The notes under the pieces: model-generated
What the model saw: the letters and a program-made list of their open reading frames with translations, nothing else
What the model was told of the DNA's origin: nothing
Database searches by the model: none
Translations under genes and position numbers: made by a program
Source: a phage
Reading direction: 5' to 3' (one strand)
Sequence record: OZ346219.1
DNA length: 64,000 bases
Part shown: positions 1,123 through 56,588 of the stretch, in pieces
Position numbering within the stretch: position 1 is the first letter of the stretch
Layout: the number at the start of each line of letters is the position of its first letter

Positions 1123-1162
1123 TGTTTGATTCTCCTAAGTGGTATCTCGTCTTGATGGTTGT

Positions 1163-1191
1163 ATTGTAGGGGAGTTATCCTCCCCTGTCAA
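1163..1191 (-). promoter_or_regulatory. early-type promoter cassette (sigma70-like) with spacer palindrome
   Basis: Minus strand TTGACA, 17-bp spacer GGGGAGGATAACTCCCC, TACAAT; A-rich upstream; conserved leader with GGAG. Confidence 0.6.
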
Positions 1192-1205
1192 CACTTTTTA
1201 TAAAA

Positions 1206-1373
1206 TTATTTGTTAATTTCCGGTGCGTTGCTCGGATAGTAACCTTCTTTAACACCCAGATATTTTGCAACCATCCCTACAATCTTCTGTGCTACTACAA
1301 TGTCAAATTTCAGATAATCTTCGCCGTGGGTTTCAATGATATATGCTTCACATGCTGCTTTAGTCTCGAACAT
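1206..1373 (-). CDS. small hypothetical protein (55 aa), duplicate copy 1
   Basis: Hand translation MFETKAACEAYIIETHGEDYLKFDIVVAQKIVGMVAKYLGVKEGYYPSNAPEINK; near-identical second copy at 4492-4659; promoter cassette upstream. Confidence 0.4.
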   Translation of the reverse strand: MFETKAACEAYIIETHGEDYLKFDIVVAQKIVGMVAKYLGVKEGYYPSNAPEINK

Positions 1374-1406
1374 TTTGATTCTCCTATTTCGTTTCGTTAT
1401 GTGTGT

Positions 1407-1435
1407 ATTATAGGGGATCTCCCGATCCCCGTCAA
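1407..1435 (-). promoter_or_regulatory. early-type promoter cassette with spacer palindrome
   Basis: TTGACG, 17-bp spacer GGGATCGGGAGATCCCC, TATAAT. Confidence 0.6.
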
Positions 1436-1449
1436 CAACTTTTTTAAAA

Positions 1450-1731
1450 TTATTCGTGATTAGTTTCGATGTTGTGCATTTTGCACCAGTTCAGCCAATC
1501 GCCCAGATCTTGATAGTTGATGCTTTTATCTGCTGCCATCGTTTTTGTCTTGATACCCATATGTGCGTTATGAGTAAGCATTTTTACAGTGAACTCGATT
1601 TTATCGCCTTTAGCTTTAACATCAACCAGTTTTGTCCACTGGCTACCAGCACCGCGAATGTTCATACCAACGATGTTTCCGATGTATGCTTCTTTGTTTT
1701 TCAGGATTTCGGTTGCTTTGATGAATTTCAT
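1450..1731 (-). CDS. hypothetical protein (93 aa)
   Basis: ORF downstream of promoter cassette 1765-1793 with conserved leader and GGAG. Confidence 0.45.
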   Translation of the reverse strand: MKFIKATEILKNKEAYIGNIVGMNIRGAGSQWTKLVDVKAKGDKIEFTVKMLTHNAHMGIKTKTMAADKSINYQDLGDWLNWCKMHNIETNHE

Positions 1732-1764
1732 TTTTGATTCTCCAGTTCGTTTCGGTATGGGTGT

Positions 1765-1793
1765 ATTATGCTATGTTCTTACTTTGGTGTCAA
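1765..1793 (-). promoter_or_regulatory. early-type promoter cassette
   Basis: TTGACA, 17 bp, CATAAT; same upstream A-tract and leader, no spacer palindrome. Confidence 0.5.
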
Positions 1794-1802
1794 CAACTTT
1801 TT

Positions 1803-2072
1803 TTAGATATTTTCAGAAATAAATTTTAAAACTTGACGTAAATGTTTCTCATCTTTGATAGTCGCCGGAAGTTCTTCTTTTACTTCCTGTGCAAGATAGA
1901 TATTTCCGTTCCAAGTGAAAGATCCGTCTTCGTTTACGCGATAGCTGAACATCCACTCGCAATCATTTTCGATTTCATATACACACAGAAGGGTGTAATC
2001 GTTAAAGCTATTGATTTCAAGGTCGAAGCCGTGACGTTTTGCAAAGTTGGTAGTGGTTTTAGTCAGCGCCAT
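1803..2072 (-). CDS. hypothetical protein (89 aa)
   Basis: ORF downstream of promoter cassette 2113-2141. Confidence 0.45.
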   Translation of the reverse strand: MALTKTTTNFAKRHGFDLEINSFNDYTLLCVYEIENDCEWMFSYRVNEDGSFTWNGNIYLAQEVKEELPATIKDEKHLRQVLKFISENI

Positions 2073-2112
2073 TGTTTGATTCTCCTAAGTGGTATCTCGT
2101 TTCGATGGGTGT

Positions 2113-2141
2113 ATTATGCTATAGGCGTGATCTGGTGTCAA
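2113..2141 (-). promoter_or_regulatory. early-type promoter cassette
   Basis: TTGACA, 17 bp, CATAAT; conserved leader. Confidence 0.5.
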
Positions 2142-2162
2142 CAACTTTTTTAATTTTTTGGA

Positions 2163-2190
2163 AATAAAAAAGCCGACACTAAGGTCGGCT
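2163..2190 (-). terminator. intrinsic terminator after ORF 2202-2507
   Basis: Minus-strand hairpin AGCCGACcttagtGTCGGCT followed by TTTTTTATTTC. Confidence 0.6.
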
Positions 2191-2201
2191 AATAAAATCA
2201 T

Positions 2202-2507: not shown

Positions 2508-2560
2508 AGTATTATCCTCAATAGTTTGATGAAAAGGGGTGGGGCTTAACGCCCCGTATA

Positions 2561-2848: not shown

Positions 2849-2894
2849 AATTTGATTCTCCTAGTTAGAAAGTGTATCTCGTTTCGATGGGTGT

Positions 2895-2923
2895 ATTATG
2901 CTATACACCCGATCTTATGTCAA
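2895..2923 (-). promoter_or_regulatory. early-type promoter cassette
   Basis: TTGACA, 17 bp, CATAAT; conserved leader. Confidence 0.5.
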
Positions 2924-2929
2924 CACTTT

Positions 2930-3223
2930 TTATAAAATAATTTTTTGATATTTTTCTATGATGTTTGTGTAGGTCACGTCAACCGCTAGCACCGTTGCTT
3001 CGAATCCACCGTTTAGCCAATGGCTATGATCATGATCGTGAAAGAAACCAAGACCAGTACGAAGACCTTCTTTATATTCGGCGCGTACATTTAGATCATC
3101 ATCGATAAACAGATAAAACCATGAATTTTTACTAGGATTGATGATACAACCTTTCAGATTAGGGAGAATATCACGACTAAGAATAAACTTATCACCTACT
3201 TTGAACATAATATTAGTCCTCAT
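2930..3223 (-). CDS. small protein, HxHW paralog family member B
   Basis: 97 aa; FYLFIDDDL...HDHDHSHW...VLAVDV. Confidence 0.5.
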   Translation of the reverse strand: MRTNIMFKVGDKFILSRDILPNLKGCIINPSKNSWFYLFIDDDLNVRAEYKEGLRTGLGFFHDHDHSHWLNGGFEATVLAVDVTYTNIIEKYQKIIL

Positions 3224-3533: not shown

Positions 3534-3534
3534 T

Positions 3535-4235: not shown

Positions 4236-4459
4236 AATATATTCCTCTTAGAAAGGGATGGTCATTTCTTGAGCTTGTACGTTCTCGTTAGGATTAAACT
4301 TCATCCAGCCGATATTGTCTACCAGCATATGCACATTTTTATCATATCCTACGTGGGTAGTCAATACTGTATGTGCTTTACCTTCAATGATGAGTTCCAT
4401 GTACTTCTGAACTTCGATAGCTTTCATTTTGATTCTCCGTTTGTTGTCTTGATGGGAGT

Positions 4460-4488
4460 ATCTTACTACTCCCTTTAATCATTGTCAA
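4460..4488 (-). promoter_or_regulatory. early-type promoter cassette with palindrome across the -10
   Basis: TTGACA, 17 bp, TAAGAT; palindrome GGGAGTAgtaagaTACTCCC places the -10 in the loop. Confidence 0.55.
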
Positions 4489-4491
4489 CTA

Positions 4492-4659
4492 TTATTTGTT
4501 AATTTCCGGTGCGTTGCTCGGATAGTAACCTTCTTTAACACCCAGATATTTTGCAACCATTCCGGTGATCTTCTGTGCTACTACGATATCGAATTTCAGG
4601 TAGTCTTCACCGTGGTTTGCTACAATGTATGCTTCGCATTCTGCTTTAGTCTGGAACAT
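4492..4659 (-). CDS. small hypothetical protein (55 aa), duplicate copy 2
   Basis: Same length and near-identical nucleotide sequence to 1206-1373; own promoter cassette 4692-4720. Confidence 0.4.
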   Translation of the reverse strand: MFQTKAECEAYIVANHGEDYLKFDIVVAQKITGMVAKYLGVKEGYYPSNAPEINK

Positions 4660-4691
4660 TTTTGATTCTCCTATCTCGTTGGTATGTGTGC

Positions 4692-4720
4692 ATTATAGGG
4701 GATCACCGATCCCCTGTCAA
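4692..4720 (-). promoter_or_regulatory. early-type promoter cassette with spacer palindrome
   Basis: TTGACA, spacer GGGGATCGGTGATCCCC, TATAAT. Confidence 0.6.
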
Positions 4721-4725
4721 CAACT

Positions 4726-5019
4726 TTATAATGCTTTATATGCGTATTTCATAAATTTGTCTGCCACTTCATTGGCATGTTCAGATTCTACGCCTGATTC
4801 TAGAACAATAGCTAGGTCGGTTTCGTCATTCCCGCCGTACCAATGATTTGATGTTCGATTTTTTTCAATTGGAAATTGGTCACTTTTATCTGTGCGACAA
4901 AATACATCTAAATGCTCGTCGATGTAAAAGATCCAATCTTCATAAAGAATAACGGTATTAGCCAGATTTTTATTGCCTTCAACGAAAGGTTCGGCTACAA
5001 ACAAATTAGTATGTTCCAT
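4726..5019 (-). CDS. small protein, HxHW paralog family member E (divergent)
   Basis: Start trimmed to Met20; IFYIDEHLDVF...TSNHW...AIVLESGVE. Confidence 0.4.
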   Translation of the reverse strand: MEHTNLFVAEPFVEGNKNLANTVILYEDWIFYIDEHLDVFCRTDKSDQFPIEKNRTSNHWYGGNDETDLAIVLESGVESEHANEVADKFMKYAYKAL

Positions 5020-5035
5020 AGTATTTTCCTCAAAA

Positions 5036-5227: not shown

Positions 5228-5283
5228 AATATTATCCTCAATTTGTGGGAGAGTATTACCCTCCCGATTATTGTTATACTACA

Positions 5284-5586
5284 TTACGCAAAATGGCGTG
5301 TCAATGCTTCTTTTGCTGTTCCGCTAAGATTCTCGATCTCTCCTGGCATAACCTCAACCGCAAGAACTTCTACAACATCCTCTGATCCTAACCAGTGAGT
5401 ATGACCTTTGTAGAACTTGATATCCCATTTATCGCTATCGCTAGCCCACCACACATCACCGTCGATAAAGTTGATGTAAAGCACACTACGACACATTGAA
5501 TTAATTACTTTCAATACTGCGCCTTTCATCTCTTCCACGGTATGGTCTTCCATTTTGAAGACCTCGCCTACCTTAACTTTTGCCAT
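5284..5586 (-). CDS. small protein, HxHW paralog family member F
   Basis: 100 aa; LYINFIDGDVWW...KGHTHW...VLAVEV. Confidence 0.5.
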   Translation of the reverse strand: MAKVKVGEVFKMEDHTVEEMKGAVLKVINSMCRSVLYINFIDGDVWWASDSDKWDIKFYKGHTHWLGSEDVVEVLAVEVMPGEIENLSGTAKEALTRHFA

Positions 5587-5603
5587 TTAGTCACCTCTCT
5601 TTA

Positions 5604-5783: not shown

Positions 5784-5817
5784 AATTGATTCTCCTAGTT
5801 CGTTTCGGTATGTGTGT

Positions 5818-5846
5818 AGTATAGGGGATCGGTGATCCCCTGTCAA
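5818..5846 (-). promoter_or_regulatory. early-type promoter cassette with spacer palindrome
   Basis: TTGACA, spacer GGGGATCACCGATCCCC, TATACT. Confidence 0.55.
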
Positions 5847-5854
5847 CAACTTTT

Positions 5855-6166
5855 TTAAAGTTTTTCCATGATAACGGTCATAATTACATCTTCTGCGCGA
5901 GCGGTCAGATTATCAGCGTCAGCATGTGGGCGGTTGGTTGTTACAGAGATAACACCGTTGCGCACTGGTTTGATGTTGATATCAAGATGATCCGCGAAAC
6001 GTTCGCCAGTTACAGAATGAATTTTGGTGTTAAATTCTTTTGCCAGTGCCTTGCGAACTTCACGAATCAGGGTAGCGTTTTTCAGTTGGTTCTCCGCGCT
6101 CATGGTCTTCTTGGTGTTCATGGTTCCGTCGAAGTCAATCATTGGCAGCGTTACGATGTATTTCAT
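5855..6166 (-). CDS. hypothetical protein (about 103 aa)
   Basis: Start trimmed to Met21 downstream of promoter cassette 6212-6240. Confidence 0.4.
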   Translation of the reverse strand: MKYIVTLPMIDFDGTMNTKKTMSAENQLKNATLIREVRKALAKEFNTKIHSVTGERFADHLDINIKPVRNGVISVTTNRPHADADNLTARAEDVIMTVIMEKL

Positions 6167-6211
6167 TTTTGATTCTCCGTTTAAGAAAGTGTGTTTCGTT
6201 TTGATGTGTGT

Positions 6212-6240
6212 AGTATAGGGGATCACCGATCCCCTGTCAA
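6212..6240 (-). promoter_or_regulatory. early-type promoter cassette with spacer palindrome
   Basis: TTGACA, spacer GGGGATCGGTGATCCCC, TATACT. Confidence 0.55.
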
Positions 6241-6252
6241 CAACTTTTTGAA

Positions 6253-6729
6253 TTATTTTTCTTGATGCTCGCGATCGTACTTTTCGAAATAAAATTCTAC
6301 TGGCTGGTCATGAATTGACAGTAAGCCAAAGCGTTTAGCCGCTCGCAATCCCATATTGCGCTGAATGTACTTCTGGAAGTTCTCGCGTATACACTTACGC
6401 CAGTATTCTAAGCCCATACAGCTTTTATAAAGATTGCATTGCACACACGCCGGATTCATGTTATCAAGTATATCATGTTCCGGTTTATGCATTCCTACAA
6501 CCTTATACTTCCACGATCCATCATCATTACGGGCAATTCGTCCATTTTCATCATAGACTACCTTTGAGCGTCGCAATACTGGTTTGATGTGGTCTGCGTG
6601 CCAGCGATCCCCTAGTTCCTCGCCACAATAGGCACAACGTCCACCATATTTCATTTTCAGGATCTGGCGTTGCTCTTTCTTTGACATTTTTTTAGGTTTA
6701 GGGGCTTTCGCCCCTTCATTATCACACAT
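6253..6729 (-). CDS. HNH-type endonuclease-like zinc-finger protein
   Basis: CAYCGEELGDRWHADHIKP (CxxC...HxDH) plus downstream CVQC; start may be the internal Met at 6687. Confidence 0.5.
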   Translation of the reverse strand: MCDNEGAKAPKPKKMSKKEQRQILKMKYGGRCAYCGEELGDRWHADHIKPVLRRSKVVYDENGRIARNDDGSWKYKVVGMHKPEHDILDNMNPACVQCNLYKSCMGLEYWRKCIRENFQKYIQRNMGLRAAKRFGLLSIHDQPVEFYFEKYDREHQEK

Positions 6730-9243: not shown

Positions 9244-9284
9244 AATTTTATTACCTCTTCAAATCAATACAGTTTAATGATGAA

Positions 9285-14033: not shown

Positions 14034-14066
14034 CTTGATACTCCTTAGTTGTTTTGGTATGGGAGT

Positions 14067-14095
14067 ATCTTACTACTCCCGTGATATGCTGTCAA
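14067..14095 (-). promoter_or_regulatory. early-type promoter cassette with palindrome across the -10
   Basis: TTGACA, 17 bp, TAAGAT; GGGAGTAgtaagaTACTCCC. Confidence 0.55.
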
Positions 14096-14104
14096 CTGCT
14101 TTTT

Positions 14105-14254
14105 TTATGCAACCGCAAACATCAACATTTGAACATTCTTGGCTGTCTGGCTTTCAAAGTTCTGACATTCTTTGATAATGTCCTCTACTTTCTCGCCGGA
14201 GATCTCCGCGTAAGTTTCGATTGCCATTTTCAGTACCGCGTCAAAGTTGTTCAT
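14105..14254 (-). CDS. small hypothetical protein (49 aa)
   Basis: Hand-called ORF (MNNFDAVLKMAIETYAEISGEK...) behind promoter cassette 14293-14321; below ORF-track size cutoff. Confidence 0.3.
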   Translation of the reverse strand: MNNFDAVLKMAIETYAEISGEKVEDIIKECQNFESQTAKNVQMLMFAVA

Positions 14255-14292
14255 TTGATTCTCCTTAAAGTGTATTTCGTTTCGATGGGGGT

Positions 14293-14321
14293 ATATTACT
14301 ACCCCCGTTTCATGCTGTCAA
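14293..14321 (-). promoter_or_regulatory. early-type promoter cassette with palindrome across the -10
   Basis: TTGACA, 17 bp, TAATAT; GGGGGTAgtaataTACCCCC. Confidence 0.55.
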
Positions 14322-14540
14322 CTACTTTTTAATGACAAGTTCGAATTTTGCTACCTTGCGTCCTCGTTTATTGAAAGCAACCCACGGACGGTTTTCAATG
14401 TAGAACAATTCTTCGCCAATAATGAATACTGGCTGATTGTAAAGGCGACCCATCAGGTCACGCTGGCGAATGGTAGTAGATTCGTATACTTCGCCTACTA
14501 CAAAGTGTTTGCTGATAGAGTCGGTGCAAGTAAATTTCAT
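14322..14540 (-). CDS. hypothetical protein (72 aa)
   Basis: ORF behind promoter cassette 14574-14602. Confidence 0.4.
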   Translation of the reverse strand: MKFTCTDSISKHFVVGEVYESTTIRQRDLMGRLYNQPVFIIGEELFYIENRPWVAFNKRGRKVAKFELVIKK

Positions 14541-14573
14541 TTTGATTCTCCTTTGTTTCGTTTCGATGGGAGT

Positions 14574-14602
14574 ATCTTACTACCCCCGTTATTCAGTGTC
14601 AA
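14574..14602 (-). promoter_or_regulatory. early-type promoter cassette
   Basis: TTGACA, 17 bp, TAAGAT; imperfect GGGGGTAGTAAGATACTCCC element. Confidence 0.5.
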
Positions 14603-14609
14603 CTACTTT

Positions 14610-14828
14610 TTACTTGTTGTATTCATTCCACCACTGGGTGAGCTTATCAATTATTTTTGTGTTTCTATCCAACTTCTCCCACCGTTTTCTAGGGTTTATC
14701 AACCGGAATAGGTAAGGTGTACTTGTTAAGTGAACTCGGTCAATGTAGTGATTGATATACTGCTTTTCAATTCTAAGTTTCATCTTTTTACGATGAAAAT
14801 ATGCAATGACTTGTTCTTCTGTTTCCAT
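14610..14828 (-). CDS. hypothetical protein (72 aa)
   Basis: ORF behind promoter cassette 14853-14881. Confidence 0.4.
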   Translation of the reverse strand: METEEQVIAYFHRKKMKLRIEKQYINHYIDRVHLTSTPYLFRLINPRKRWEKLDRNTKIIDKLTQWWNEYNK

Positions 14829-14852
14829 ATGTTCCTCCGTTTCGATGTGCGT

Positions 14853-14881
14853 ATTATGCTATGGCAAGATCAGATTGTCAA
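14853..14881 (-). promoter_or_regulatory. early-type promoter cassette
   Basis: TTGACA, 17 bp, CATAAT. Confidence 0.5.
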
Positions 14882-14889
14882 CACCCAAT

Positions 14890-14918
14890 AACAAAAAAGT
14901 CGCCACTATGGGCGACTT
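14890..14918 (-). terminator. intrinsic terminator after HAD-like gene
   Basis: Minus-strand AGTCGCCcatagtGGCGACT followed by TTTTTTG. Confidence 0.55.
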
Positions 14919-14928
14919 TGAACAAACA

Positions 14929-17085: not shown

Positions 17086-17117
17086 AATAAAATCCTCACT
17101 TGTTTTTTGATGGTTGT

Positions 17118-17146
17118 ATTATAGCGGGGATTTCTCCCCGCGTCAA
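17118..17146 (-). promoter_or_regulatory. early-type promoter cassette with spacer palindrome
   Basis: TTGACG, spacer CGGGGAGAAATCCCCGC, TATAAT; precedes the three-ORF small-gene operon. Confidence 0.55.
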
Positions 17147-17154
17147 CACTTATT

Positions 17155-19398
17155 TTACAGCTTGCAAGATGAGCACTCGCTAGCGTCTTCCGTACCATCT
17201 GCACCATCACGCACGTTAGCGTAATACAGTGTCTTGAGGCCGTAATATTGAGCAAACAACATATCATCTAAAACATCAGCAATATCGACTTTACCAGTCT
17301 TATAAGTGCTTGGATCGTAGGATGTGTTGGAACTAATCGCCTGATCTACAAACTTCTGCATGATCGCTGCCAGTGTCAGATAAGGCTTGTTACCTTTCTT
17401 GATCAGTGTCCAAAGCAGGTCAATAACATCAGCATTATTCTCTACGTTCGGAATGACCTGATTAAATTGCCCTTCTTTCGATCCTTTAACCGATACAATC
17501 CCGCGAGGCGGTTCAATACCGTTTGTGCTGTTAGATACCTGAGAAGACGACTCACACGGCATCAGCGCCGAAAGTGTACTGTTACGAATGCCATATTTTT
17601 TCAGGTCTTCGCGCAGTTCTTCCCAATCCATCTCATACACCGGATCAACCAGTTCATCTACTGTCTTTTTGTACCAGTCGATAGGCAGTTCACCGCGACC
17701 ATAGCGTGTTTCGTGCATCAGTTCGCAAGCACCCTTCTCTTTAGCCAGTCGCACACTAGCCTTAATCAGAGCATATTGCAAGCGTTCAAACGTTTTATGC
17801 GTAAACTCGTTAGCGTCTTCATATGTGAAGAAATTATCTGCTAGATATGATGCAAAGTTAGTAACACCAACACCCAGAGAGCGACGTTTTTTGGCTGTCA
17901 GAGCTTGTTCTACAGGATAATCCTGATAATCTAACAGGTTGTCAAGTGCACGCACCATAACCATAGCAATGCGTTCTACTTCTTCCATATTTTCGATATC
18001 GAAATTACCTAAAACATATGCTGCCAAAGTACATAGGCTAATTTCTGAATCATCACGACCCATCGGTTTAGTAGGCAGTGCAATTTCACAACACAGGTTA
18101 GATTGTTTAATCGGTGCTACATTACGAATAAACGCCCCGTGATTGTTCATGTTGTCTGTGAACGTTGGGTAGATTCGACCAGTGTTAAAACGTTCAATTG
18201 CCACCGCTAAAAACAGGTCTTCGGCTTTAACACGAGTTTTACGAACACTCGGATCTTTTTCCAGTTTTTCGTAAAGTTGGCGGAAACCTTCCTCATCTCG
18301 GAAGTATAGATCCCACAACAAGCCACCCGCAACATCTGGACTAAACAGAGTAATGTAATCCCGTTTAAGGAATCGCTCTACCATCAGGTTATTAATCTGT
18401 ACGCCGTAGTCAAGATGGCGAATGCGGTTATCTTCCACGCCCTTATTGTTCTTTAACACAATCAGACTTTCAAACTCTAAATGCCACATTGGGTAATAGA
18501 GTGTCGCTGCCCCGCCACGAATACCGCCTTGTGAGCATGACTTAACGGCAGTCTGAAAATGTTTCCAGAATGGGATAACGCCAGTATGACGAACTTCACC
18601 ATGCCCGATCTTAGATCCTTCCGCGCGAATCATGCCAGCGTTGATACCGATACCAGCACGCTTGCTAATATACTTAATGATTGCATTTGCGGTTTCATTA
18701 ATACCCTGCAATGAGTCATCACTTTCGATCACCACACACGAACTAAATTGGCGTGTTGGGGTACGCACACCTGCCATAATCGGAGTAGGCAGAGAGATTT
18801 GCTTATTCGCAACCGCATTATAAAAATCAATCACATGTTCAAGTCGATTTTCGGTCTCTTCTTGATGCAAGCACATACCGATCAGCATATACGCAAATTG
18901 CGGTGTTTCGATGATTTTCTTAGTGCTGCGATCCTGAACAAGATATTTCTCTTTTAACTGCATCGCACCAGCATAGGTCATTTTAAAATCAAGTTTATGG
19001 TCGATGAATTTCTCCAGATATTCCACTTCTTCACGGGAATACTTTTGCAGAATTTCGCGATCATATTTTCCGGTTGCAATATTACGCTCAATATGGCTGT
19101 AAAAATCAATCGGTTGGAATTGACCGTATACTGATTTGCGAAGCGCGAACATTGCAAGGTTACTTGCTACATATTGATAATCGGGTGTTTCTACAGTAAT
19201 GTTATCTGCTGCGACCTTAATCAATACTTTCTGGATATCGTTGGTAGACATACCTTCTGTCAGAAGTGGTTCAACCATATCAAACAATTCATATGGATCA
19301 ACGTTATGACCTTCGGCTGCCGCTTCCAGAATTTTCATTACTTTTTCTTTTTCAAAAGGAACAGTCAGACCGGAAGACTTAACAACATTTTTAATCAT
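17155..19398 (-). CDS. nrdA: ribonucleotide reductase class Ia large subunit
   Basis: 747 aa; ATP-cone N-terminus, C-terminal CSSCKL-type Cys pair. Confidence 0.95.
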   Translation of the reverse strand: MIKNVVKSSGLTVPFEKEKVMKILEAAAEGHNVDPYELFDMVEPLLTEGMSTNDIQKVLIKVAADNITVETPDYQYVASNLAMFALRKSVYGQFQPIDFYSHIERNIATGKYDREILQKYSREEVEYLEKFIDHKLDFKMTYAGAMQLKEKYLVQDRSTKKIIETPQFAYMLIGMCLHQEETENRLEHVIDFYNAVANKQISLPTPIMAGVRTPTRQFSSCVVIESDDSLQGINETANAIIKYISKRAGIGINAGMIRAEGSKIGHGEVRHTGVIPFWKHFQTAVKSCSQGGIRGGAATLYYPMWHLEFESLIVLKNNKGVEDNRIRHLDYGVQINNLMVERFLKRDYITLFSPDVAGGLLWDLYFRDEEGFRQLYEKLEKDPSVRKTRVKAEDLFLAVAIERFNTGRIYPTFTDNMNNHGAFIRNVAPIKQSNLCCEIALPTKPMGRDDSEISLCTLAAYVLGNFDIENMEEVERIAMVMVRALDNLLDYQDYPVEQALTAKKRRSLGVGVTNFASYLADNFFTYEDANEFTHKTFERLQYALIKASVRLAKEKGACELMHETRYGRGELPIDWYKKTVDELVDPVYEMDWEELREDLKKYGIRNSTLSALMPCESSSQVSNSTNGIEPPRGIVSVKGSKEGQFNQVIPNVENNADVIDLLWTLIKKGNKPYLTLAAIMQKFVDQAISSNTSYDPSTYKTGKVDIADVLDDMLFAQYYGLKTLYYANVRDGADGTEDASECSSCKL

Positions 19399-21948: not shown

Positions 21949-21979
21949 AATATAATACTCTCTTTGTTTCGATATGTGC

Positions 21980-22007
21980 ATTATACACTATTGCGTTACG
22001 CTGTCAA
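21980..22007 (-). promoter_or_regulatory. early-type promoter cassette
   Basis: TTGACA, 16 bp, TATAAT. Confidence 0.5.
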
Positions 22008-23180: not shown

Positions 23181-23209
23181 ATTTTATCCTCCGTTGTTTC
23201 GATGTGTGC

Positions 23210-23237
23210 ATTATACATTACAGCATCAGCATGTCAA
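23210..23237 (-). promoter_or_regulatory. early-type promoter cassette
   Basis: TTGACA, 16 bp, TATAAT; downstream of gene 32 terminator, upstream of zinc-ribbon repeat gene. Confidence 0.5.
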
Positions 23238-23262
23238 TACATTTTCATAAAATTTTAGGCAA

Positions 23263-41582: not shown

Positions 41583-41616
41583 AATATATTCCTCAGTGTT
41601 TTGTCTTGATGGGAGT

Positions 41617-41645
41617 ATCTTACTACTCCCTTAATCCGGTGTCAA
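41617..41645 (-). promoter_or_regulatory. early-type promoter cassette with palindrome across the -10
   Basis: TTGACA, 17 bp, TAAGAT; GGGAGTAgtaagaTACTCCC, identical core to 4460 and 14067. Confidence 0.55.
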
Positions 41646-41652
41646 CTACTTT

Positions 41653-41808
41653 TTAAATTTCTTCTACAGTAAAGTCTTCAATGTTGTTGTGCTCGGAGAA
41701 CGTTGCCAGACCAGCATTCCATGCATCATCCTCAGAGAAGAATACACCGTAACGTTCATATCCTTTAGCGCCTTCAAATTTAACCATTAATTTGTGAGTA
41801 TGTTTCAT
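41653..41808 (-). CDS. small hypothetical protein (about 51 aa)
   Basis: Start trimmed to Met30 downstream of promoter cassette 41840-41868. Confidence 0.3.
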   Translation of the reverse strand: MKHTHKLMVKFEGAKGYERYGVFFSEDDAWNAGLATFSEHNNIEDFTVEEI

Positions 41809-41839
41809 TTTGATTCTCCTTCGTTGTCTTGATGAGTTT

Positions 41840-41868
41840 AGTATAGGGGATCGCCGATCCCCTGTCAA
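41840..41868 (-). promoter_or_regulatory. early-type promoter cassette with spacer palindrome
   Basis: TTGACA, spacer GGGGATCGGCGATCCCC, TATACT. Confidence 0.55.
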
Positions 41869-41882
41869 CCAGTTTTTAGAAA

Positions 41883-42143
41883 TTATTTTCGCCATTCACC
41901 TGAAACAATGAAGTTTGTAAAGTGATTGTGGTCCGTGATAATGTCATTAAGTACCATATGCGGATATGCTTTAGTGTAATCACGTTTACGATCAGTCATC
42001 CAACCAACGAAAGTCGGTGCAAAGTACGGCACACCGTCAGACGATGCCATATTAAACCCTTTGTCAGCCATAAATGCAGCCGCCCTAAGATTTTTAATTG
42101 AAGTAGTGCGACTAATTTCAAAAACTTTATCGGTAAAATTCAT
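41883..42143 (-). CDS. hypothetical protein (about 86 aa)
   Basis: Start trimmed to Met8. Confidence 0.35.
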   Translation of the reverse strand: MNFTDKVFEISRTTSIKNLRAAAFMADKGFNMASSDGVPYFAPTFVGWMTDRKRDYTKAYPHMVLNDIITDHNHFTNFIVSGEWRK

Positions 42144-42354: not shown

Positions 42355-42386
42355 GTGATTCCCCTTCTTTCGTTTGGTATGGGAGT

Positions 42387-42415
42387 ATATTACTACTCCC
42401 GTTTCTTTACGTCAA
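42387..42415 (-). promoter_or_regulatory. early-type promoter cassette with palindrome across the -10
   Basis: TTGACG, 17 bp, TAATAT; GGGAGTAgtaataTACTCCC. Confidence 0.55.
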
Positions 42416-42422
42416 CTCGTTT

Positions 42423-42665
42423 TTAGAAATTTTTCGCTTCTTCTTCGGTCATCATAACCGCGCATTCGTGCATAACTTTGAAAACCGGATCAATCATGTC
42501 GAATGCTTCGCGGGACAGTTTACGAGAAGCGATTTTGATTGCTTCTACGTCTTCTACTACAGGAACAAAAACAGTTTTCAGTTCGTCGAGGACGGCAGCT
42601 TCTTTTTCATTCAGGAAGATCCCAGCGTCGTACAGTGCAACTTCGATAACATTAACTTTAACCAT
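42423..42665 (-). CDS. hypothetical protein (about 80 aa)
   Basis: Start trimmed to Met22 downstream of promoter cassette 42700-42728. Confidence 0.35.
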   Translation of the reverse strand: MVKVNVIEVALYDAGIFLNEKEAAVLDELKTVFVPVVEDVEAIKIASRKLSREAFDMIDPVFKVMHECAVMMTEEEAKNF

Positions 42666-42699
42666 TTTTATTTCCTCCAGTTCGTTTCGGTATGGGAGT

Positions 42700-42728
42700 A
42701 TAATACTACCGATGACCTTTGGCGTCAA
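42700..42728 (-). promoter_or_regulatory. early-type promoter cassette
   Basis: TTGACG, 17 bp, TATTAT. Confidence 0.45.
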
Positions 42729-42930
42729 CTAGTTTTTTGTTATTTTCGTGAAATTTTTTCGTCGCCTCATGTGCTTTTCGCTGGGCTTCTTGTTGTGCTT
42801 GCTGGCGTGCTGCCTCTTGCGATGCCATAACAGACGCATTTGCAGCAGTTACAGCCGCGACCATCGCTGCGGTATTAGCATTTACCGTACATGCACTAGC
42901 CAGCAAAGCAATCGCAATCATTTTCTTCAT
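42706..42930 (-). CDS. small secreted protein (74 aa)
   Basis: N-terminal signal peptide MKKMIAIALLASACTVNA; Q/A-rich helical remainder. Confidence 0.4.
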   Translation of the reverse strand: MKKMIAIALLASACTVNANTAAMVAAVTAANASVMASQEAARQQAQQEAQRKAHEATKKFHENNKKLVDAKGHR

Positions 42931-43374: not shown

Positions 43375-43405
43375 CTTTGATTCTCCTTTTGTTTGGTATG
43401 GGTGT

Positions 43406-43434
43406 ATTATGCAATGTTGGATTCTGTAAGTCAA
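43406..43434 (-). promoter_or_regulatory. early-type promoter cassette
   Basis: TTGACT, 17 bp, CATAAT; directly downstream of terminator 43450-43476. Confidence 0.5.
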
Positions 43435-43449
43435 CAACTTTTTAAAATA

Positions 43450-43476
43450 AAAAAGCCGACCACACGGATCGGCTTA
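43450..43476 (-). terminator. intrinsic terminator after ORF 43485-43880
   Basis: Minus-strand hairpin AGCCGATCCGTGTGGTCGGCT followed by TTTTTTATTTT; same hairpin as the plus-strand terminator at 32875. Confidence 0.55.
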
Positions 43477-50261: not shown

Positions 50262-50457
50262 TTTGATTCTCCTTTGTTACTAGATAACGAATTTGGTCTT
50301 GCATTGCAATCAGTTCCCAGCGTGCTACTTTCATCATGGAAACTGCCTCTTTGAACATAATATTAGCCTTTTCCTTCTCTCCTGTCAAGTAGATTTCTGC
50401 AATTTTTTCACAAAATTTTTGAGTTTCTTCATTCTTAAACGGTTTCATATAAGTCAA
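50254..50457 (-). CDS. hypothetical protein (67 aa)
   Basis: ORF behind promoter cassette 50479-50507. Confidence 0.35.
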   Translation of the reverse strand: MTYMKPFKNEETQKFCEKIAEIYLTGEKEKANIMFKEAVSMMKVARWELIAMQDQIRYLVTKENQNA

Positions 50458-50478
50458 CCTTTTGTTTTCGATGGGGAT

Positions 50479-50507
50479 ATTATTCTATATCCCCTATCTG
50501 GTGTCAA
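50479..50507 (-). promoter_or_regulatory. early-type promoter cassette with palindrome across the -10
   Basis: TTGACA, 17 bp, AATAAT; GGGGATATagaatAATATCCCC. Confidence 0.5.
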
Positions 50508-50514
50508 CAGATTT

Positions 50515-50895
50515 TTAATCTTTTTTCAGGGCATCCATTACTCGCTCTGCGATCAGTTCTCGTAAGCACTGATAGCCATGATATTTGATGGCAATGTCAC
50601 GCAGATCATTAACCAATTCCCGTACTTCATGGTCTTTCAAATCGTCTCTGTATTTCGATTTAACCGTGTCTTTAGGTGGATTGTGGATAACCTGAAAACC
50701 TTGTTCTGCAATCACTGCGGCTTCGCGCTGGCGTTCATGCTGTACTGTATTTTTGATCAGGTCTGCTTCCATGAACTTTGCCATACTCATCATCATGTTA
50801 TTCTTTTTGCTCATTATTAAATCCTCATAAAAGAAAAGGGAGACTCCCATTATAGAGAATCTCCCTTGTATGTCAAGTGTTATGATTGCATCCAA
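50515..50895 (-). CDS. hypothetical protein (126 aa)
   Basis: ORF overlapping gene 39 stop. Confidence 0.4.
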   Translation of the reverse strand: MDAIITLDIQGRFSIMGVSLFFYEDLIMSKKNNMMMSMAKFMEADLIKNTVQHERQREAAVIAEQGFQVIHNPPKDTVKSKYRDDLKDHEVRELVNDLRDIAIKYHGYQCLRELIAERVMDALKKD

Positions 50896-52703
50896 ATTTT
50901 GCGCTGATCTGCATCTTCACTATAGAGCAAATCGAATAGCTCTTTATAGTTTTCCGGTAACGTGATGATCTCCATTACAGGATCGTTGATCACGCGATGA
51001 TAGTCTGATTCTGTGAGCGATGCTAAACCTTTGATATATCGAATATTATAACCTTTGATATTATCTCGATCGTTCTCGAAATCTTCTAGGTCATAATACC
51101 ATCGAACATCATCACCTTTCTTTGGTTCAGCAATGATAATAGGTGTTTTGATAAACCGGATTCGTCCATCTTCGAACAATTCAGGCCAACGTGCAAAGAA
51201 AGAGATCAGACTAGGCTTAATAGACCCGATCCCGTCGGTATCAGCGTCTGTCATAATCGCAATATTTTTGTATTGCATAACTTCCAATGCATCAACACCA
51301 AATTGCAAACCAGTGATCGCCATGATGTTAAAAATTTCGGCGTTCTTAACGATCTTTGCCTCTGGTTGCTCCCACGTTGTAAGAGTTTTACCTCGCAACG
51401 GGAAACCGCCATGTAAATCTTGATCACGTACAGAGATCAGATAGTTGATTGCGGAATCACCTTCCGTCAAAAACAGGGTAGTTTCTGCGTCAGTTCCAAT
51501 AAGGTTAGCTTTAACGTGCTTTGCTACCTTAGCCCGTTTTGCTGCCTTTGCTGCCTTAGTCGCTGCCGCTTTATCTGCTGCCTCTTTGCGTGCCAGGACG
51601 ACAGCAATAATAGGCATGATAATGTTTTCTTTCTTCGCAATGACTTTAGCCAGTTTTTTAAAATCCAGATCAATGTGTCGCTTGATATCACCAGTTGGGT
51701 TAGTCAAGCGTTCTTTTGTCTGTGAATCAAAACGAAGGTTAGGCAATTCACGAACAATAAGAATACAGGTCAATCCAGATTTAACCGCAGCTTTAGTAAC
51801 ATCAACCTTATATTCTTTCTTGATTCGTTTTACAATCTCTTCACAAAGATCATCTGTCACATAATCAACGTGTGTTCCCCCGTTTTTGGTAAACAGACCG
51901 TTAGCAAAGGATACTGATTTAAAACCTTCTCCCTCGACCGCCGGAACTAGGGCAAGTGAAAAGTTTTTATCTTCAATGACAAACGGATCATCATTGTATA
52001 GTTTAGCATAATCCTTGAACTTACTAACAATACGTTTACCATTAAACTTAAACGTGATCTTAGGAAATATTACGCTCAATGATTGCAGACGATCATGAAC
52101 AATATCTAAAACAGAGTTGTCCATCATATAACCTTCGAAGTGGTCGAAGTCTGGGCAAAATGTAACCTTTGTTCCCTTCAATTTTGATGGTTTTGATGAC
52201 CATGTGATATTTTCAGCACCGTTTGTGCATTGAACGGTCATTTCTGTTTCGCCGTCACAGGTCACACCAGTAAACCAATCGCTAAAGAAATTTGATAACG
52301 ACGACCCAACACCGTTCATCCCTTGCGTTAATCGATTGGTATCATCAAAGTTAGACCCTGCTTTTGTTCGTGTCCATGCGGCTACAGGTTGCGGAATCTG
52401 CGTGCCCTCTGGGGTAGTAACCATATGTTGAGGAATACCGCGACCATTGTCTGTTACCGTAACAATATTGTTTTGGATATCGACGCTAATCACATTGGCA
52501 AATTCAAAATTAGTGCGGATCGCCTCGTCTACAGAGTTGTCGATGATCTCATCAATGATTTTCACCAGTCCAGGAACATATGAAATTTTTGTCCATTTAC
52601 CGAACAGGAAACGTTGATGTTCTTCGTAAGTTGTTGATCCTATATACATTCCTGCACGCTTAAGGACATGCTCACGATCAGATAAAATGCGAAACTCACT
52701 CAT
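50880..52703 (-). CDS. 39: DNA topoisomerase II large subunit (GyrB-like ATPase), uninterrupted
   Basis: 607 aa; N-terminal ILSDREHVLKRAGMYIGS, ATPase and TOPRIM regions in one ORF. Confidence 0.9.
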   Translation of the reverse strand: MSEFRILSDREHVLKRAGMYIGSTTYEEHQRFLFGKWTKISYVPGLVKIIDEIIDNSVDEAIRTNFEFANVISVDIQNNIVTVTDNGRGIPQHMVTTPEGTQIPQPVAAWTRTKAGSNFDDTNRLTQGMNGVGSSLSNFFSDWFTGVTCDGETEMTVQCTNGAENITWSSKPSKLKGTKVTFCPDFDHFEGYMMDNSVLDIVHDRLQSLSVIFPKITFKFNGKRIVSKFKDYAKLYNDDPFVIEDKNFSLALVPAVEGEGFKSVSFANGLFTKNGGTHVDYVTDDLCEEIVKRIKKEYKVDVTKAAVKSGLTCILIVRELPNLRFDSQTKERLTNPTGDIKRHIDLDFKKLAKVIAKKENIIMPIIAVVLARKEAADKAAATKAAKAAKRAKVAKHVKANLIGTDAETTLFLTEGDSAINYLISVRDQDLHGGFPLRGKTLTTWEQPEAKIVKNAEIFNIMAITGLQFGVDALEVMQYKNIAIMTDADTDGIGSIKPSLISFFARWPELFEDGRIRFIKTPIIIAEPKKGDDVRWYYDLEDFENDRDNIKGYNIRYIKGLASLTESDYHRVINDPVMEIITLPENYKELFDLLYSEDADQRKIWMQS

Positions 52704-52802
52704 TATTAAACCTCTTCATAACATAACCATAACTTACTGCAACCGCCACAAAGACGGCTGCAACAATCATATTAAAAATTGAGTGATTGTCAAGTATATG
52801 AC

Positions 52803-52976: not shown

Positions 52977-52977
52977 A

Positions 52978-53718: not shown

Positions 53719-53890
53719 TAATCCCGTTACCGTAATTATCGGTTAACAGTCGTTCCGTTGCCATGTATGCGCGTACTTTGTTGTTAAAATTCATTACATG
53801 TTGTGCATAGTCACAATGAATCTTTTGACGGTTCCACGCGACAATTGATTGTAGATGTATTACATTAGCCACATTATTAATAACAACCAT
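53648..53890 (-). CDS. hypothetical protein (80 aa)
   Basis: ORF between dda and dexA; overlaps dexA start. Confidence 0.3.
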   Translation of the reverse strand: MVVINNVANVIHLQSIVAWNRQKIHCDYAQHVMNFNNKVRAYMATERLLTDNYGNGIIDCSGFILDKNDLELFRHIAEDI

Positions 53891-54069
53891 ATCAAAACCC
53901 TCGCTTAGTGAAATGCTCGATCATTTTATTGATACATGCAGCTTCACTATCGCCGGACACGTTCCAGCCGTATAGACCCCATCTAAAGCACATGGTAACA
54001 GTTCCATTGTGACGGCTTACCGTCACATCATTAAATTCTGGGATACTTCGCATAATCATAATAATTTCC

Positions 54070-55461
54070 TCAAATATAGTCTACTCGATACCGCGCACGG
54101 GTAACACCCACATATAATAACTGCATTGCCAATTCAAAGTCAACATTGTCTGTACACATGCAAGGAGTATACAGGAACACGCGGTCTACGCTGATCCCTT
54201 GTGACTTATGAATAGTGCAAGCTGGTAATGCTTTTACATTTAAAAACATACGTTTCATCGTCCAGAAAGAGTCCCAATCTGGTTTAAATTTTGGATTCTC
54301 TTTCTTCATTTCGCGATAATGTCCGGCGACCGTATTCAGATAGATAGAGAAAATGTTCTTCTGACGTTGTTCTGTCAGAATGTTGATTTCTACCAAATCC
54401 GGTTTATCTGTAGTGATTCCGACTGCATCTAAACCGACTTTCTGATTTAGGATTTCTTTGTCTTCGTCATCATCGACGCTTTCCACTTTCAGAGTATAGC
54501 CTAAAACTGGTTGCGGATCTACCCCCGTGCAACGTAATGTAAATTCACGCGGTATAACCTCTTTAACTCGGATCATCTCGCCATTGTTAAAAATAACATT
54601 GGGAATCTTCTTTCCGCGTTCATCTCGCAGATATTCGATTAACGGTTCCTGAGTAACCAGAATTTCATCTACAATCACTGGTTCATCGGTGTTATAAACG
54701 CGCTTGCGCACAATTTCATTGAGTTTTTCGACGCTCTTGTTAGTGTAAGCCAGAATACGGTTTTCTAGAAGGTCTTCCGGCGTTTTAACTGTTTCGAAAT
54801 AATGCTTCATAAACTCCGGCAGAGTTGAGCTATGGAATACACCCTCGTTGCCGCACTGCTTTTCGAATACCCATTTACCATTACGGACAGCGGTCGCCAC
54901 ATCAATGATCGGTGCATTAGATCGTTTAATTTCTGTCAACTCCACGTTTTGAAAATTTTCGTCCGTGAAGAAAGGAGAAATTGACGTTGCACCGCTCGGA
55001 TCAACTGGTCGTAACTGGTGTGGATCGCCAACTGCAATAACAACAATTCGACCATTGATACTCTTCATGAGAATATCAAATAGTTTCTTATCGACCATAC
55101 TCGCTTCATCAACAATGATGATCTGAACATCATCTAGCTTAGGAGTATCTTTTTGCTCAAATACTTGAGTATCTTCATAGTTGGTCGGGTTAAGACGCAA
55201 TAAAGCATGTAAAGTAAATGCTTGACGACCTACCGCTTTACTCAAAACTTTTTTAGCCTGGTGGGTAGGCGTTGCCAAAACCACACCAGTTACACCACGG
55301 CGGACCATTTCCTGAACAATGAATTTCATCATTGCGGTTTTACCAGTACCCGCCGCACCACGGACAGTTGTATGCTTCTTTTGTTCAATGCGTTTCATTA
55401 GAACATCAAAAGCATGTTTTTGTCCGTCTGTCAACATATCGAAAGTTAATACTCTGCTCAT
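54070..55461 (-). CDS. dda: DNA helicase Dda (SF1)
   Basis: 463 aa; Walker A GAAGTGKT, Walker B IIVDEASM. Confidence 0.85.
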   Translation of the reverse strand: MSRVLTFDMLTDGQKHAFDVLMKRIEQKKHTTVRGAAGTGKTAMMKFIVQEMVRRGVTGVVLATPTHQAKKVLSKAVGRQAFTLHALLRLNPTNYEDTQVFEQKDTPKLDDVQIIIVDEASMVDKKLFDILMKSINGRIVVIAVGDPHQLRPVDPSGATSISPFFTDENFQNVELTEIKRSNAPIIDVATAVRNGKWVFEKQCGNEGVFHSSTLPEFMKHYFETVKTPEDLLENRILAYTNKSVEKLNEIVRKRVYNTDEPVIVDEILVTQEPLIEYLRDERGKKIPNVIFNNGEMIRVKEVIPREFTLRCTGVDPQPVLGYTLKVESVDDDEDKEILNQKVGLDAVGITTDKPDLVEINILTEQRQKNIFSIYLNTVAGHYREMKKENPKFKPDWDSFWTMKRMFLNVKALPACTIHKSQGISVDRVFLYTPCMCTDNVDFELAMQLLYVGVTRARYRVDYI

Positions 55462-55775
55462 TATCCTAAAATCCTCACCTTGCGAACACAGATAGTATTG
55501 AGTTCTCGCCGTACCCGTTCTTTTTCATATTCAGGAATTTTATATTCGATACCATCCCGAACAATTTCAGAAGACCGGATTATACCAAATTTTCGTTTAG
55601 GCACAACCTTGTATTTCGGTTCACCTGCCAATAGACTCTCACAATAATCTATCTGATCACACATTGACGCTAACGCAGCATCATGTGTTTCGCAAGTTAG
55701 GACGCGACCTTTCGCGTCCACTGAGTATTGAAAGAATCCGTCTTTATCACGATAACATACAGCAAATACATGCAT
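55461..55775 (-). CDS. hypothetical protein (104 aa)
   Basis: ORF upstream of dda. Confidence 0.35.
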   Translation of the reverse strand: MHVFAVCYRDKDGFFQYSVDAKGRVLTCETHDAALASMCDQIDYCESLLAGEPKYKVVPKRKFGIIRSSEIVRDGIEYKIPEYEKERVRRELNTICVRKVRILG

Positions 55776-56530
55776 TATAAACCTACCTTAGCTTTCATCA
55801 ATTCAATCCACGACGCATCAATCGGAAGCCCGTATTTCACGCGTTCTTTTTGTGCTGGCGTTAAGTTCTCATACTTAGAAAGAGATTCAATCAAAACGCT
55901 GGTATATTTTAGCACGATTTCGGTATTGTTTGCAATAGCCTTTAGTTTTTCCTCTTTCTTGTTGATTTCGCTAAGGGCTTGCTTGAGATCTGCAATTTTC
56001 TGATAACGTTCTTCCATACGGAAGAGAGTATTTTTAATCGCTCGCTCTGCTGCCTCTGCTTTCTCCGGTTCGTTGTGCTTTTTGTGGCGCTCGATTGCTA
56101 ATTTCTTTTCTTCGATTGCCATTTCCTGATTTTTGATGCGATTCTCGTTAAGTTCGATCCACTCGATGTACTTCGCACGTAGGGCAATTTCATCATCAGA
56201 AAGTTTACCGTTAGTTCCTAGTTCCTGGATCTCTTTAAGAGATTCGATAGTGTGATTGCCACGGAAAGAATTGTATTTCAGTTTAACCGGAATTACATTG
56301 CCATCAACATATCCCAGATTGCAATCAATGCGCTCTAAGGAGAGTCCGTCATCACCTTCACCGAAAGCCTCACCTGAATAGGCACAATGAGTCTGGCGGT
56401 AAATGTTACGAACAGTGACTAAGCTCATAGAGAAGTCTTTGTTGCGACGTGAAGCACCAGCCATGATAGAGTTCAGCCGGAAAACAACCAGCGCCAATTC
56501 TTCGTTAGATTTAAAAGCAAACAGTTTCAT
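55775..56530 (-). CDS. hypothetical protein with C-terminal coiled coil (251 aa)
   Basis: ORF behind promoter cassette 56560-56588; K/E-rich heptad-like C-terminal half. Confidence 0.4.
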   Translation of the reverse strand: MKLFAFKSNEELALVVFRLNSIMAGASRRNKDFSMSLVTVRNIYRQTHCAYSGEAFGEGDDGLSLERIDCNLGYVDGNVIPVKLKYNSFRGNHTIESLKEIQELGTNGKLSDDEIALRAKYIEWIELNENRIKNQEMAIEEKKLAIERHKKHNEPEKAEAAERAIKNTLFRMEERYQKIADLKQALSEINKKEEKLKAIANNTEIVLKYTSVLIESLSKYENLTPAQKERVKYGLPIDASWIELMKAKVGL

Positions 56531-56559
56531 AATTGATTCTCCTTAGTTGGCATGTGTGT

Positions 56560-56588
56560 ATTATTGTCTATCTGGTTTGTGCTGTCAA
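56560..56588 (-). promoter_or_regulatory. early-type promoter cassette
   Basis: TTGACA, 17 bp, AATAAT. Confidence 0.45.

Follow-up and report, generated by a model that had tools for sequence, protein, structure and literature searches.

Promoter-early stem-loop cassettes in a 64,000-nucleotide stretch of an RB49-type phage genome

We analyzed 64,000 nucleotides of phage DNA from sequence record OZ346219.1; this whole stretch, at its full length, is called the window. It contains 23 minus-strand copies of a promoter cassette between positions 1123 and 56608. Judged by their sequence and location, the cassettes are promoter-early stem-loops (PeSLs), orthologs of the founders of that family in phages phi1 and RB49. 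We are highly confident in the explanation as a whole, in which the PeSLs of an RB49/phi1-type T4-like coliphage would act as promoter, stem-loop and recombination unit in one. The finding is already known, and the analysis is confirmatory for this window. What it adds is only modestly new: stem covariation with a G·U bias, the absence of U-tracts and flips of the class A loop.

PeSLs were named by Arbiol et al. (2010, Genome Biol Evol 2:140; PMC2839356), who found 52 copies in phi1 and 51 in RB49. The published element contains an upstream stop codon, an AT-rich tract, sigma70-consensus -35 and -10 hexamers, a polyG...polyC stem-loop, a Shine-Dalgarno sequence and an ATG. The stem-loop has five possible positions, and the commonest are between the -35 and -10 or over the -10 (PMC2839356). 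PeSLs occur mainly in hyperplastic regions, upstream of ORFans (PMC2839356). An earlier sequence-only reading of the window had described a resemblance to these elements. The relationship is closer than that, one of orthology.

Architecture, number and identity of the cassettes

The window belongs to Krischvirus, the genus of T4-type coliphages that includes RB49 and phi1. Over positions 1000-9000, identity is 98.8% with Escherichia phage kaaroe and 93-97% with phi1, RB49, GEC-3S, ECD7, JSE and others, all of them Krischvirus. The same relationship was found for positions 1-25000 and 39001-64000. The window is colinear with phi1 from open reading frame (ORF) 189 to ORF274. This segment includes gp30, gp31, nrdAB, gp32 and the tail-fibre genes gp34-37, followed by rIIB/rIIA to uvsX. 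Positions 1-6400 correspond to phi1 ORF190-212, which is hyperplastic region HPR3 of the published study (PMC2839356). The cassette sites are present as the same intergenic sites in phi1 and RB49 at 94-98% identity. The GenBank record of GEC-3S carries promoter annotations at the homologous sites.

Each cassette is named by the plus-strand coordinate of the first T in its -35. All 23 have the same order of parts: an A-tract, TTGAC(A/G/T), a spacer of 16-17 bp, a -10 hexamer, a leader of the CATCGAAACGA type, GGAGAATCAAA and ATG. This confirms the architecture that the sequence-only reading had proposed. The TTGAC never varies, and there is an A-run at about -40 to -45. Of the spacers, 21 measure 17 bp and 2 measure 16 bp. 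Every cassette sits between minus-strand ORFs, and its A-tract touches or overlaps the upstream stop codon. In the minus-strand direction, the unit repeated in 1000-6400 consists of an A-rich tract, (G)TTGAC(A/G), a 17-bp spacer, a -10, ACAC(A/C)CAT(C/A)..AACGA, GGAGAATCAAA and ATG. One example from this segment reads AAAAAGTTGTTGACA-GGGGATCGGTGATCCCC-TATACT-ACACACATCAAAACGA...GGAGAATCAAAAATG.

The earlier count of about 23 copies, all on the minus strand, agrees with our catalogue, as does its figure of nine copies in the first stretch (9 of the 23 within 1123-6260; a tenth, looser copy is at 5304). Its limits of 1123 and 56588 also hold. They are the base before the ATG of the first cassette and the first T of the last -35. 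Clusters of cassettes are found at 1.1-6.3 kb, 14.0-14.9 kb and 41.6-43.5 kb. A profile was built from 16 cassette copies and used to recover the remaining ones. Its matches in the window with an expect value of at most 1 are all on the minus strand, and a search of the window with it found no cassette in the tail-fibre block (27.9-38.5 kb). The search of related genomes that had been suggested gave the same picture. Over the window and 13 loci of relatives, 147 of 147 profile matches are on the same strand, with 16 copies each in the phi1 and RB49 loci, again on a single strand. The early genes of the window all occupy the minus strand, the late tail-fibre genes the plus strand. The strand bias of the cassettes follows from this arrangement, because T4-type early genes run leftward (PMC1524935).

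The repetition is an accurate observation and is far from chance. Expected counts were taken from dinucleotide-preserving shuffles of the window. The leader 11-mer CATCGAAACGA occurs 49 times with up to 2 mismatches (24.4 +/- 4.7 expected). GGAGAATCAA is exact in 15 copies, all on the minus strand and 3-5 nucleotides ahead of an ATG. With up to 1 mismatch it occurs 17 times, 17 of 17 on the minus strand (5.7 +/- 2.2 expected). GTTGTTGAC occurs 33 times with up to 1 mismatch (16.8 expected). When 11 or more of the 12 hexamer positions must match, the minus strand has 33 sigma70 sites and the plus strand has 0 (1.5 +/- 1.2 expected, with a maximum of 5 in the shuffles). The cassettes make up about 3.6% of the window and precede about one gene in five. 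Of 20 downstream ORFs tested, 18 have no Pfam family.

Most cassettes fall into three classes by their palindrome. In class A, GGGGATC-N3/4-GATCCCC fills the spacer. In class B, GGGAGTA-gtaaga-TACTCCC holds the -10 in its loop. In class C, GGGTGTAT-agcata-ATACACCC or GGGGATAT..ATATCCCC lies around the -10. The 23 cassettes and three looser variants (5304, 50876 and 57157) are as follows.

c1191, 1123..1211, minus: class A variant; spacer palindrome GGGGAG-gataa-CTCCCC, -15.7 kcal/mol; drives an ORF190-like gene (871-1122)
c1435, 1374..1455, minus: class A, spacer palindrome GGGGATC-ggga-GATCCCC; the gene it drives is ORF191-like and encodes 55 aa; cassette and ORF form a duplicated module of 4491-4727
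c1793, 1732..1813, minus: degenerate class C, without a stem
c2141, 2073..2190, minus: degenerate class C; canonical hairpin-plus-T-run terminator (2190-2171) in the upstream AT-rich tract
c2923, 2849..2943, minus: class C; stem GGGTGTAT-agcata-ATACACCC around the -10 (CATAAT)
c4488, 4428..4508, minus: class B; stem GGGAGTA-gtaaga-TACTCCC around the -10 (TAAGAT)
c4720, 4660..4740, minus: class A; perfect 12/12 sigma70 consensus; ortholog of published PeSL206/205
c5304 (looser), 5228..5324, minus: stem-loop GGGAGgGTAaTACtCTCCC downstream of the -10; the leader differs
c5846, 5784..5866, minus: class A, loop ACC
c6240, 6167..6260, minus: class A, loop GGT; ortholog of published PeSL211/210
c14095, 14034..14115, minus: class B
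c14321, 14255..14341, minus: class B; compensated stem GGGGGTA/TACCCCC
c14602, 14541..14622, minus: class B; G·T intermediate stem GGGGGTA/TACTCCC
c14881, 14829..14919, minus: degenerate class C; canonical terminator upstream (14919-14896)
c17146, 17086..17166, minus: class A variant; spacer palindrome GCGGGGA-gaaa-TCCCCGC
c22007, 21949..22027, minus: consensus promoter with a 16-bp spacer; no strong stem
c23237, 23181..23257, minus: consensus promoter with a 16-bp spacer; no strong stem
c41645, 41583..41665, minus: class B
c41868, 41809..41888, minus: class A, loop GGC
c42415, 42355..42435, minus: class B
c42728, 42666..42748, minus: degenerate class B; inside the block 42434-42940, which is absent from phi1, KFS-EC and kvi
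c43434, 43375..43475, minus: degenerate class C; hairpin-plus-T-run (GCCGATCCGTGTGGTCGGCTTTTTT) just upstream, seen by eye
c50507, 50449..50527, minus: class C variant; stem GGGGATAT-agaata-ATATCCCC around the -10
c50876 (looser), 50815..50896, minus: consensus promoter; 13-bp stem GGGAGA..TCTCCC around the -10, then TTTTCTTTT; -21.3 kcal/mol; without the shared leader
c56588, 56531..56608, minus: no palindrome; drives an srd-like gene (55775-56530)
c57157 (looser), 57096..57177, minus: promoter; hairpin-plus-T-run GCCTCC..GGAGGCTTTTTT between the -10 and the ATG of a modB-like gene

The reading of the cassettes as strong sigma70 early promoters is well supported. Each fills the gap between two leftward early genes. 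With its A-rich, UP-like tract and its near-consensus -35 and -10, it would attract the sigma70 RNA polymerase of the host, still unmodified, as soon as infection begins. Transcription would start at the conserved A of 'CAT', about 7 nucleotides past the -10; we infer this exact start. The resulting leader is predicted to be short, A-rich and unstructured, with a strong GGAG Shine-Dalgarno sequence. The small downstream ORF would therefore be strongly expressed.

Activity in vivo is expected by analogy with the published orthologs. The whole PeSL206/205-lacZ fusion, orthologous to c4720, gave about 13,000 Miller units, and most other clones carried acquired -35/-10 mutations (PMC2839356). The early-promoter consensus of RB49 is stated to agree with 5'-end mapping (PMC1524935). 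Published work, namely this highly active fusion and the 5'-end mapping, already answers the objection that transcripts do not begin downstream of the -10 hexamers.

About 10 of the 33 near-consensus sigma70 sites lie inside early or replication coding sequences (for example minus 27835, 27278, 26372, 26239, 47935 and 47047). These could serve as internal early promoters, as in T4, or have no function.

Exchange of small-gene modules among relatives

Shuffling of ORF modules by recombination between cassettes is supported by the junction sequences described here and by published mini-circles. The cassettes are about 90 bp long and occur by the dozen in one orientation. We propose that homologous recombination could delete, duplicate, insert and swap 'cassette + ORF' modules. 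The efficient homologous recombination of the phage, acting on repeats in one orientation, would make a crossover between cassettes possible. In phi1 and RB49, inverse polymerase chain reaction yielded circular 'mini-circle' products of recombination between neighboring PeSLs (PMC2839356).

The window was compared with loci from 11 relatives. Insertion and deletion (indel) events were curated by hand. Only clean junctions were used, and several were checked by eye. Automatic chaining of BLAST segments produced some spurious multi-kilobase gaps (for example 9266-14243, 14331-16917 and 50876-53887) from paralogous cassettes or overlapping segments. The presence of cassette-flanked ORFs was found to differ between related phages, a point on which the sequence-only reading had asked for a check. 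The differences are indels and replacements with junctions in cassettes.

Phage phiS lacks 4671-6164. Its junction is a full c6240-type cassette fused to an ORF205-like coding sequence, and the fusion sequence places the crossover within GGAGAATCAAAAATG, which is common to c6240 and c4720. The ORF between c23237 and c22007 is replaced by another in ECD7, and so is the one between c14321 and c14095 in JSE and phiS. RB49, JSE and G37-3 carry an inserted ORF211 at the A-tract of c6240. JSE also has a 312-bp ORF at the A-tract of c1435. The segment at 41.6-42.9 kb shows nested states of presence and absence (41660/41884-42152 and 42434-42940), with junctions in the A-tracts of c41645, c41868 and c42415.

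A 'cassette + 55-aa ORF' module is duplicated within the window (1205-1446 and 4491-4727). The homology runs from the A-tract/-35 to the stop codon. Direct alignment of the two window copies gave 90% mean column identity. By BLAST, each window copy is 84-86% identical to the phi1/GEC-3S ortholog of the other copy.

Of about 25 events, about 10 have a cassette at one junction or at both, and in 4 the two junctions fall at equivalent cassette positions. The rest of the tally counts against this explanation. About 15 of the events have no cassette at either junction, and six of these are HNH/NUMOD4 homing-endonuclease genes. Among the hand-curated events, the enrichment of cassettes at junctions is modest when the comparison is with any gene boundary.

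The cassettes may instead be ordinary strong early promoters, alike by descent and by selection on the promoter. They would then be passive in shuffling, and the mini-circles would be by-products. We put this somewhat below an even chance. It fits the observation that crossovers fall in whichever stretch the partners have identical, the segment from Shine-Dalgarno to ATG in one case and the A-tract in another. No integrase or recombinase is associated with the cassettes, many indels in the same genomes have no cassette, and the authors of the published study leave the question open (PMC2839356). On the other side, the conservation reaches the leader CGAAACGA and the flanks of GGAGAATCAAA, positions without a known promoter role, and whole modules are duplicated. 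Both facts point to homogenization or spread of the cassettes. The two explanations are largely compatible and differ in emphasis.

Several genes in or near the variable segments were characterized further.

(a) 24335-24931, minus. This ORF encodes HNH_3 and AP2 domains and lies between gp32 and gp59. It is absent from every relative compared there, including phi1 and RB49.

(b) 58731-59285, minus. This NUMOD4 ORF lies beside the primase gene gp61. It is likewise absent from every relative compared there, including phi1 and RB49. This ORF and the preceding one look like inserted homing-endonuclease genes, and neither has a cassette at its junctions.

(c) 21996-23180, minus. This gene encodes an ORF240-like protein of 394 aa. 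Four of its stretches have CapR homology (PF21817, E = 1.5e-20), and it also matches a treble-clef zinc finger. The gene is cassette-flanked and variable among relatives, and in ECD7 it is replaced by a 330-bp ORF.

(d) 40824-41582, minus. This cassette-driven gene encodes an ORF262-like protein of 252 aa. It matches the LprI lysozyme-inhibitor domain (PF07007, E = 1.4e-5).

(e) Six minus-strand ORFs of about 92-106 aa (2202-2507, 2930-3223, 3213-3533, 3957-4235, 4726-5022 and 5284-5586). They lie in the hyperplastic region. They have the common pattern Y.Y(I/V)D...HW...V.A.DV, in which H, W and V do not vary, and their identity is 15-32%. From this pattern they look like a family of diverged paralogs.

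Stem-loops within the cassettes

A GC-rich stem in the promoter core, either in the spacer or around the -10, is present in 15 of the 23 cassettes, so the earlier statement that most copies contain a palindrome holds. The stem energies are -11 to -16 kcal/mol. Fourteen stems are perfect Watson-Crick palindromes, and one has a G·T pair. In 2141, 14881 and 43434 a hairpin is found in the AT tract upstream instead. The looser copies 5304 and 57157 have one downstream of the -10. No convincing stem was found in any promoter-relative position in 1793, 22007, 23237, 42728 and 56588, and these five correspond to the PeSLs that Comeau et al. (2014; PMC4122927) describe as 'degraded'.

In the proposed mechanism the G-run/C-run stem-loop would terminate or attenuate transcripts that read through from upstream, and it might also serve them as a protective 3' hairpin. 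It would insulate each small ORF as a separate transcription unit. In classes B and C the 3' arm of the stem extends to about -1, beside the near-invariant CAT. The hairpin would therefore lie outside the cassette's own transcript and appear only in RNA arriving from upstream.

Selection maintains the pairing of the stems, as judged from unique cores in the window and its relatives. Class B has a compensatory series from AU to GC by way of GU: GGGAGTA/TACTCCC, GGGGGTA/TACTCCC and GGGGGTA/TACCCCC. Class C has compensatory changes of GC with UA and of AU with GC. Over classes B and C together, compensatory double changes occur at three stem positions. Paired cells amount to 98% in class B and 96% in class C, against 45-74% and 32-63% with the partner slid, although the percentage paired is inflated since the stem sets were chosen for pairing in that register. 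A fixed-register count of the single-mismatch stems gave 6 distinct variants with a sense-strand G·U, 1 with a terminal A·C and 5 with transversion mismatches. The compensatory changes and the G·U bias favor a hairpin, formed by the sense RNA or by the DNA strand of the same sense, and speak against an operator recognized by its sequence.

An action of the hairpins on read-through transcripts from upstream is consistent with this pairing. Selected pairing does not amount to termination, which has been shown for one class A ortholog only. The stem-loop of PeSL211/210, orthologous to c6240, cut downstream lacZ expression as rrnB T1 did (PMC2839356). Several observations count against the proposed mechanism. 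The inflation of the pair counts is one of them. The asymmetry of G·U and A·C rests on 7 variants from related sequences, with a one-sided p of about 0.06. A stem energy scan found no in-core palindrome in 8 of the 23 cores, so the stem is not needed for promoter function. An intrinsic-terminator scan of the sense strand called no terminator at the in-core class A, B and C palindromes, and none of them is followed by a T-run. The bases right after the stem are UAUACU in class A and AUCRAA in classes B and C. Since the published termination concerns one class A stem, we only infer a terminator function for the stems of classes B and C.

The stems may act in RNA without terminating. They could be 3' hairpins that shield upstream mRNA from 3' exonucleases, or processing marks, especially in classes B and C. 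This is possible but doubtful. It would suit the missing T-runs, the tolerance of sense-strand G·U with A·C almost absent, and the stem end at about -1, which confines the hairpin to transcripts from upstream. Cassettes with a stemless core often have a true hairpin-plus-T-run upstream, which suggests that the two types of element are not equivalent. Against it stands the class A stem of PeSL211/210, which lowered lacZ as much as rrnB T1 (PMC2839356), a drop that cannot separate termination from other effects.

A two-part version is rather unlikely. The class B and C stems, which lack a U-tract, would be nonterminator sense-RNA hairpins that stabilize the 3' ends of upstream messages or mark them, and, separately, the perfect class A palindrome would invert in vivo by hairpin-mediated template switching, as is suggested by the GGT/ACC flips of the loop between orthologs. 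If class A inversion occurred, the palindromes would be active hotspots of recombination or replication slippage and not passive patches of homology.

The sequence-only reading had also offered a binding site for a dimeric regulator. The palindromes would be operators at which a sequence-specific protein of phage or host switches the early promoters. Dyad-symmetric sites in the promoter core are where a bound protein would block RNA polymerase. The class A palindrome is perfect over 7+7 bp, with an identical stem in 5 cassettes. Arbiol et al. speculated that GGGG...CCCC is the target of a DNA-binding protein, though for recombination (PMC2839356). The remaining evidence makes an operator very improbable. 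There are at least five unrelated arms (GGGGATC, GGGAGTA/GGGGGTA, GGGTGTAT/GGGGATAT, GCGGGGA and GGGGAG). The loops range from 3 to 6 nucleotides. The stems take at least three promoter-relative positions (among them the spacer, around the -10, downstream and upstream). Compensatory arm changes with G·U intermediates keep the pairing and not the identity of the bases, and one third of the cassettes have no palindrome. The idea that the stem is a structure modulating sigma70 use is not favored either, although the data speak neither for it nor against it.

IMG/VR hardly enlarged the set of stem variants. The class B pattern matched 110 stretches, mostly by chance in unrelated contigs. Only nine IMG/VR loci contain any cassette, with 1-4 each.

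The central 3 nucleotides of the palindrome GGGGATCnnnGATCCCC, which is perfect apart from them, are GGT in some copies and the reverse complement ACC in others. The copies concerned are at 6212-6240, 5818-5846 and 4692-4720 in the window, at 4793 in the phi1 locus (L002:4793) and at 6835 in the phiS locus (L009:6835). The difference occurs even between orthologous cassettes of close relatives. Such flips would fit either inversion of the palindrome or gene conversion between cassettes.

GATC is overrepresented in the whole window (356 sites against 255 +/- 14 in dinucleotide-preserving shuffles). The promoter cores contain 13 of these sites, two per class A palindrome. Dam (GATC) methylation was considered as the point of the class A palindromes and rejected, because the excess is window-wide and the class B and C stems have no GATC.

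A GC hairpin, GGGGGCTTTCGCCCCC, is located at 19446-19461 between nrdA and td. It has T-runs on the plus strand. By its sequence it is a conventional terminator-like site, unrelated to the cassettes.

Comparison with known systems

PeSLs give T4-type phages an integrase-free route to gain, lose and swap small accessory genes that come with a strong early promoter and an insulating hairpin. They are relevant to host-range adaptation, to the turnover of antidefense genes and to the genome stability of therapeutic RB49-like phages. The window adds one more genome with the published elements and with visible cassette-bounded indels.

(a) PeSLs of phi1 and RB49. The window cassettes belong to the same genus and loci as these elements (PMC2839356). 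They have the same architecture of TTGACA-N17-TATAAT with a G(n)-loop-C(n) stem and the same association with ORFans and indels. Nothing essential is different. The window has its own set of cassette-flanked ORFs, with the extra block 42434-42940 and without ORF192 or ORF211. Its stems include single-base and loop-orientation variants.

(b) PeSLs/PmSLs of T4/PST and KVP40/nt-1. The PeSL concept was extended to these phages by Comeau et al. in 2014 (PMC4122927). Their elements are likewise composites of promoter and stem-loop that lie in hyperplastic regions beside indels. The promoter consensus sequences (TTTACW...TAYWAT and TTGYVH...TAWWAT) and the stem consensus sequences (AGNA...TCNT and A3-4G3...C3T3-4) are unlike those of the window. 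Their stems are usually upstream of the promoter, whereas those of the window are inside it.

(c) Lambdoid morons. A moron is also an autonomous unit of one small accessory gene with a promoter and a terminator-like hairpin. The flanks of a moron are not repeats of a conserved sequence, and no part in its own movement is ascribed to them. The modules of the window are flanked by a homologous cassette in one orientation (PMC2839356).

(d) Integron gene cassettes (attC). These are also small promoter-adjacent ORF modules with imperfect palindromes and reported circular intermediates. Unlike integrons, the PeSL system has no integrase and has a promoter in every module. Exchange is apparently by general homologous recombination at identical stretches.

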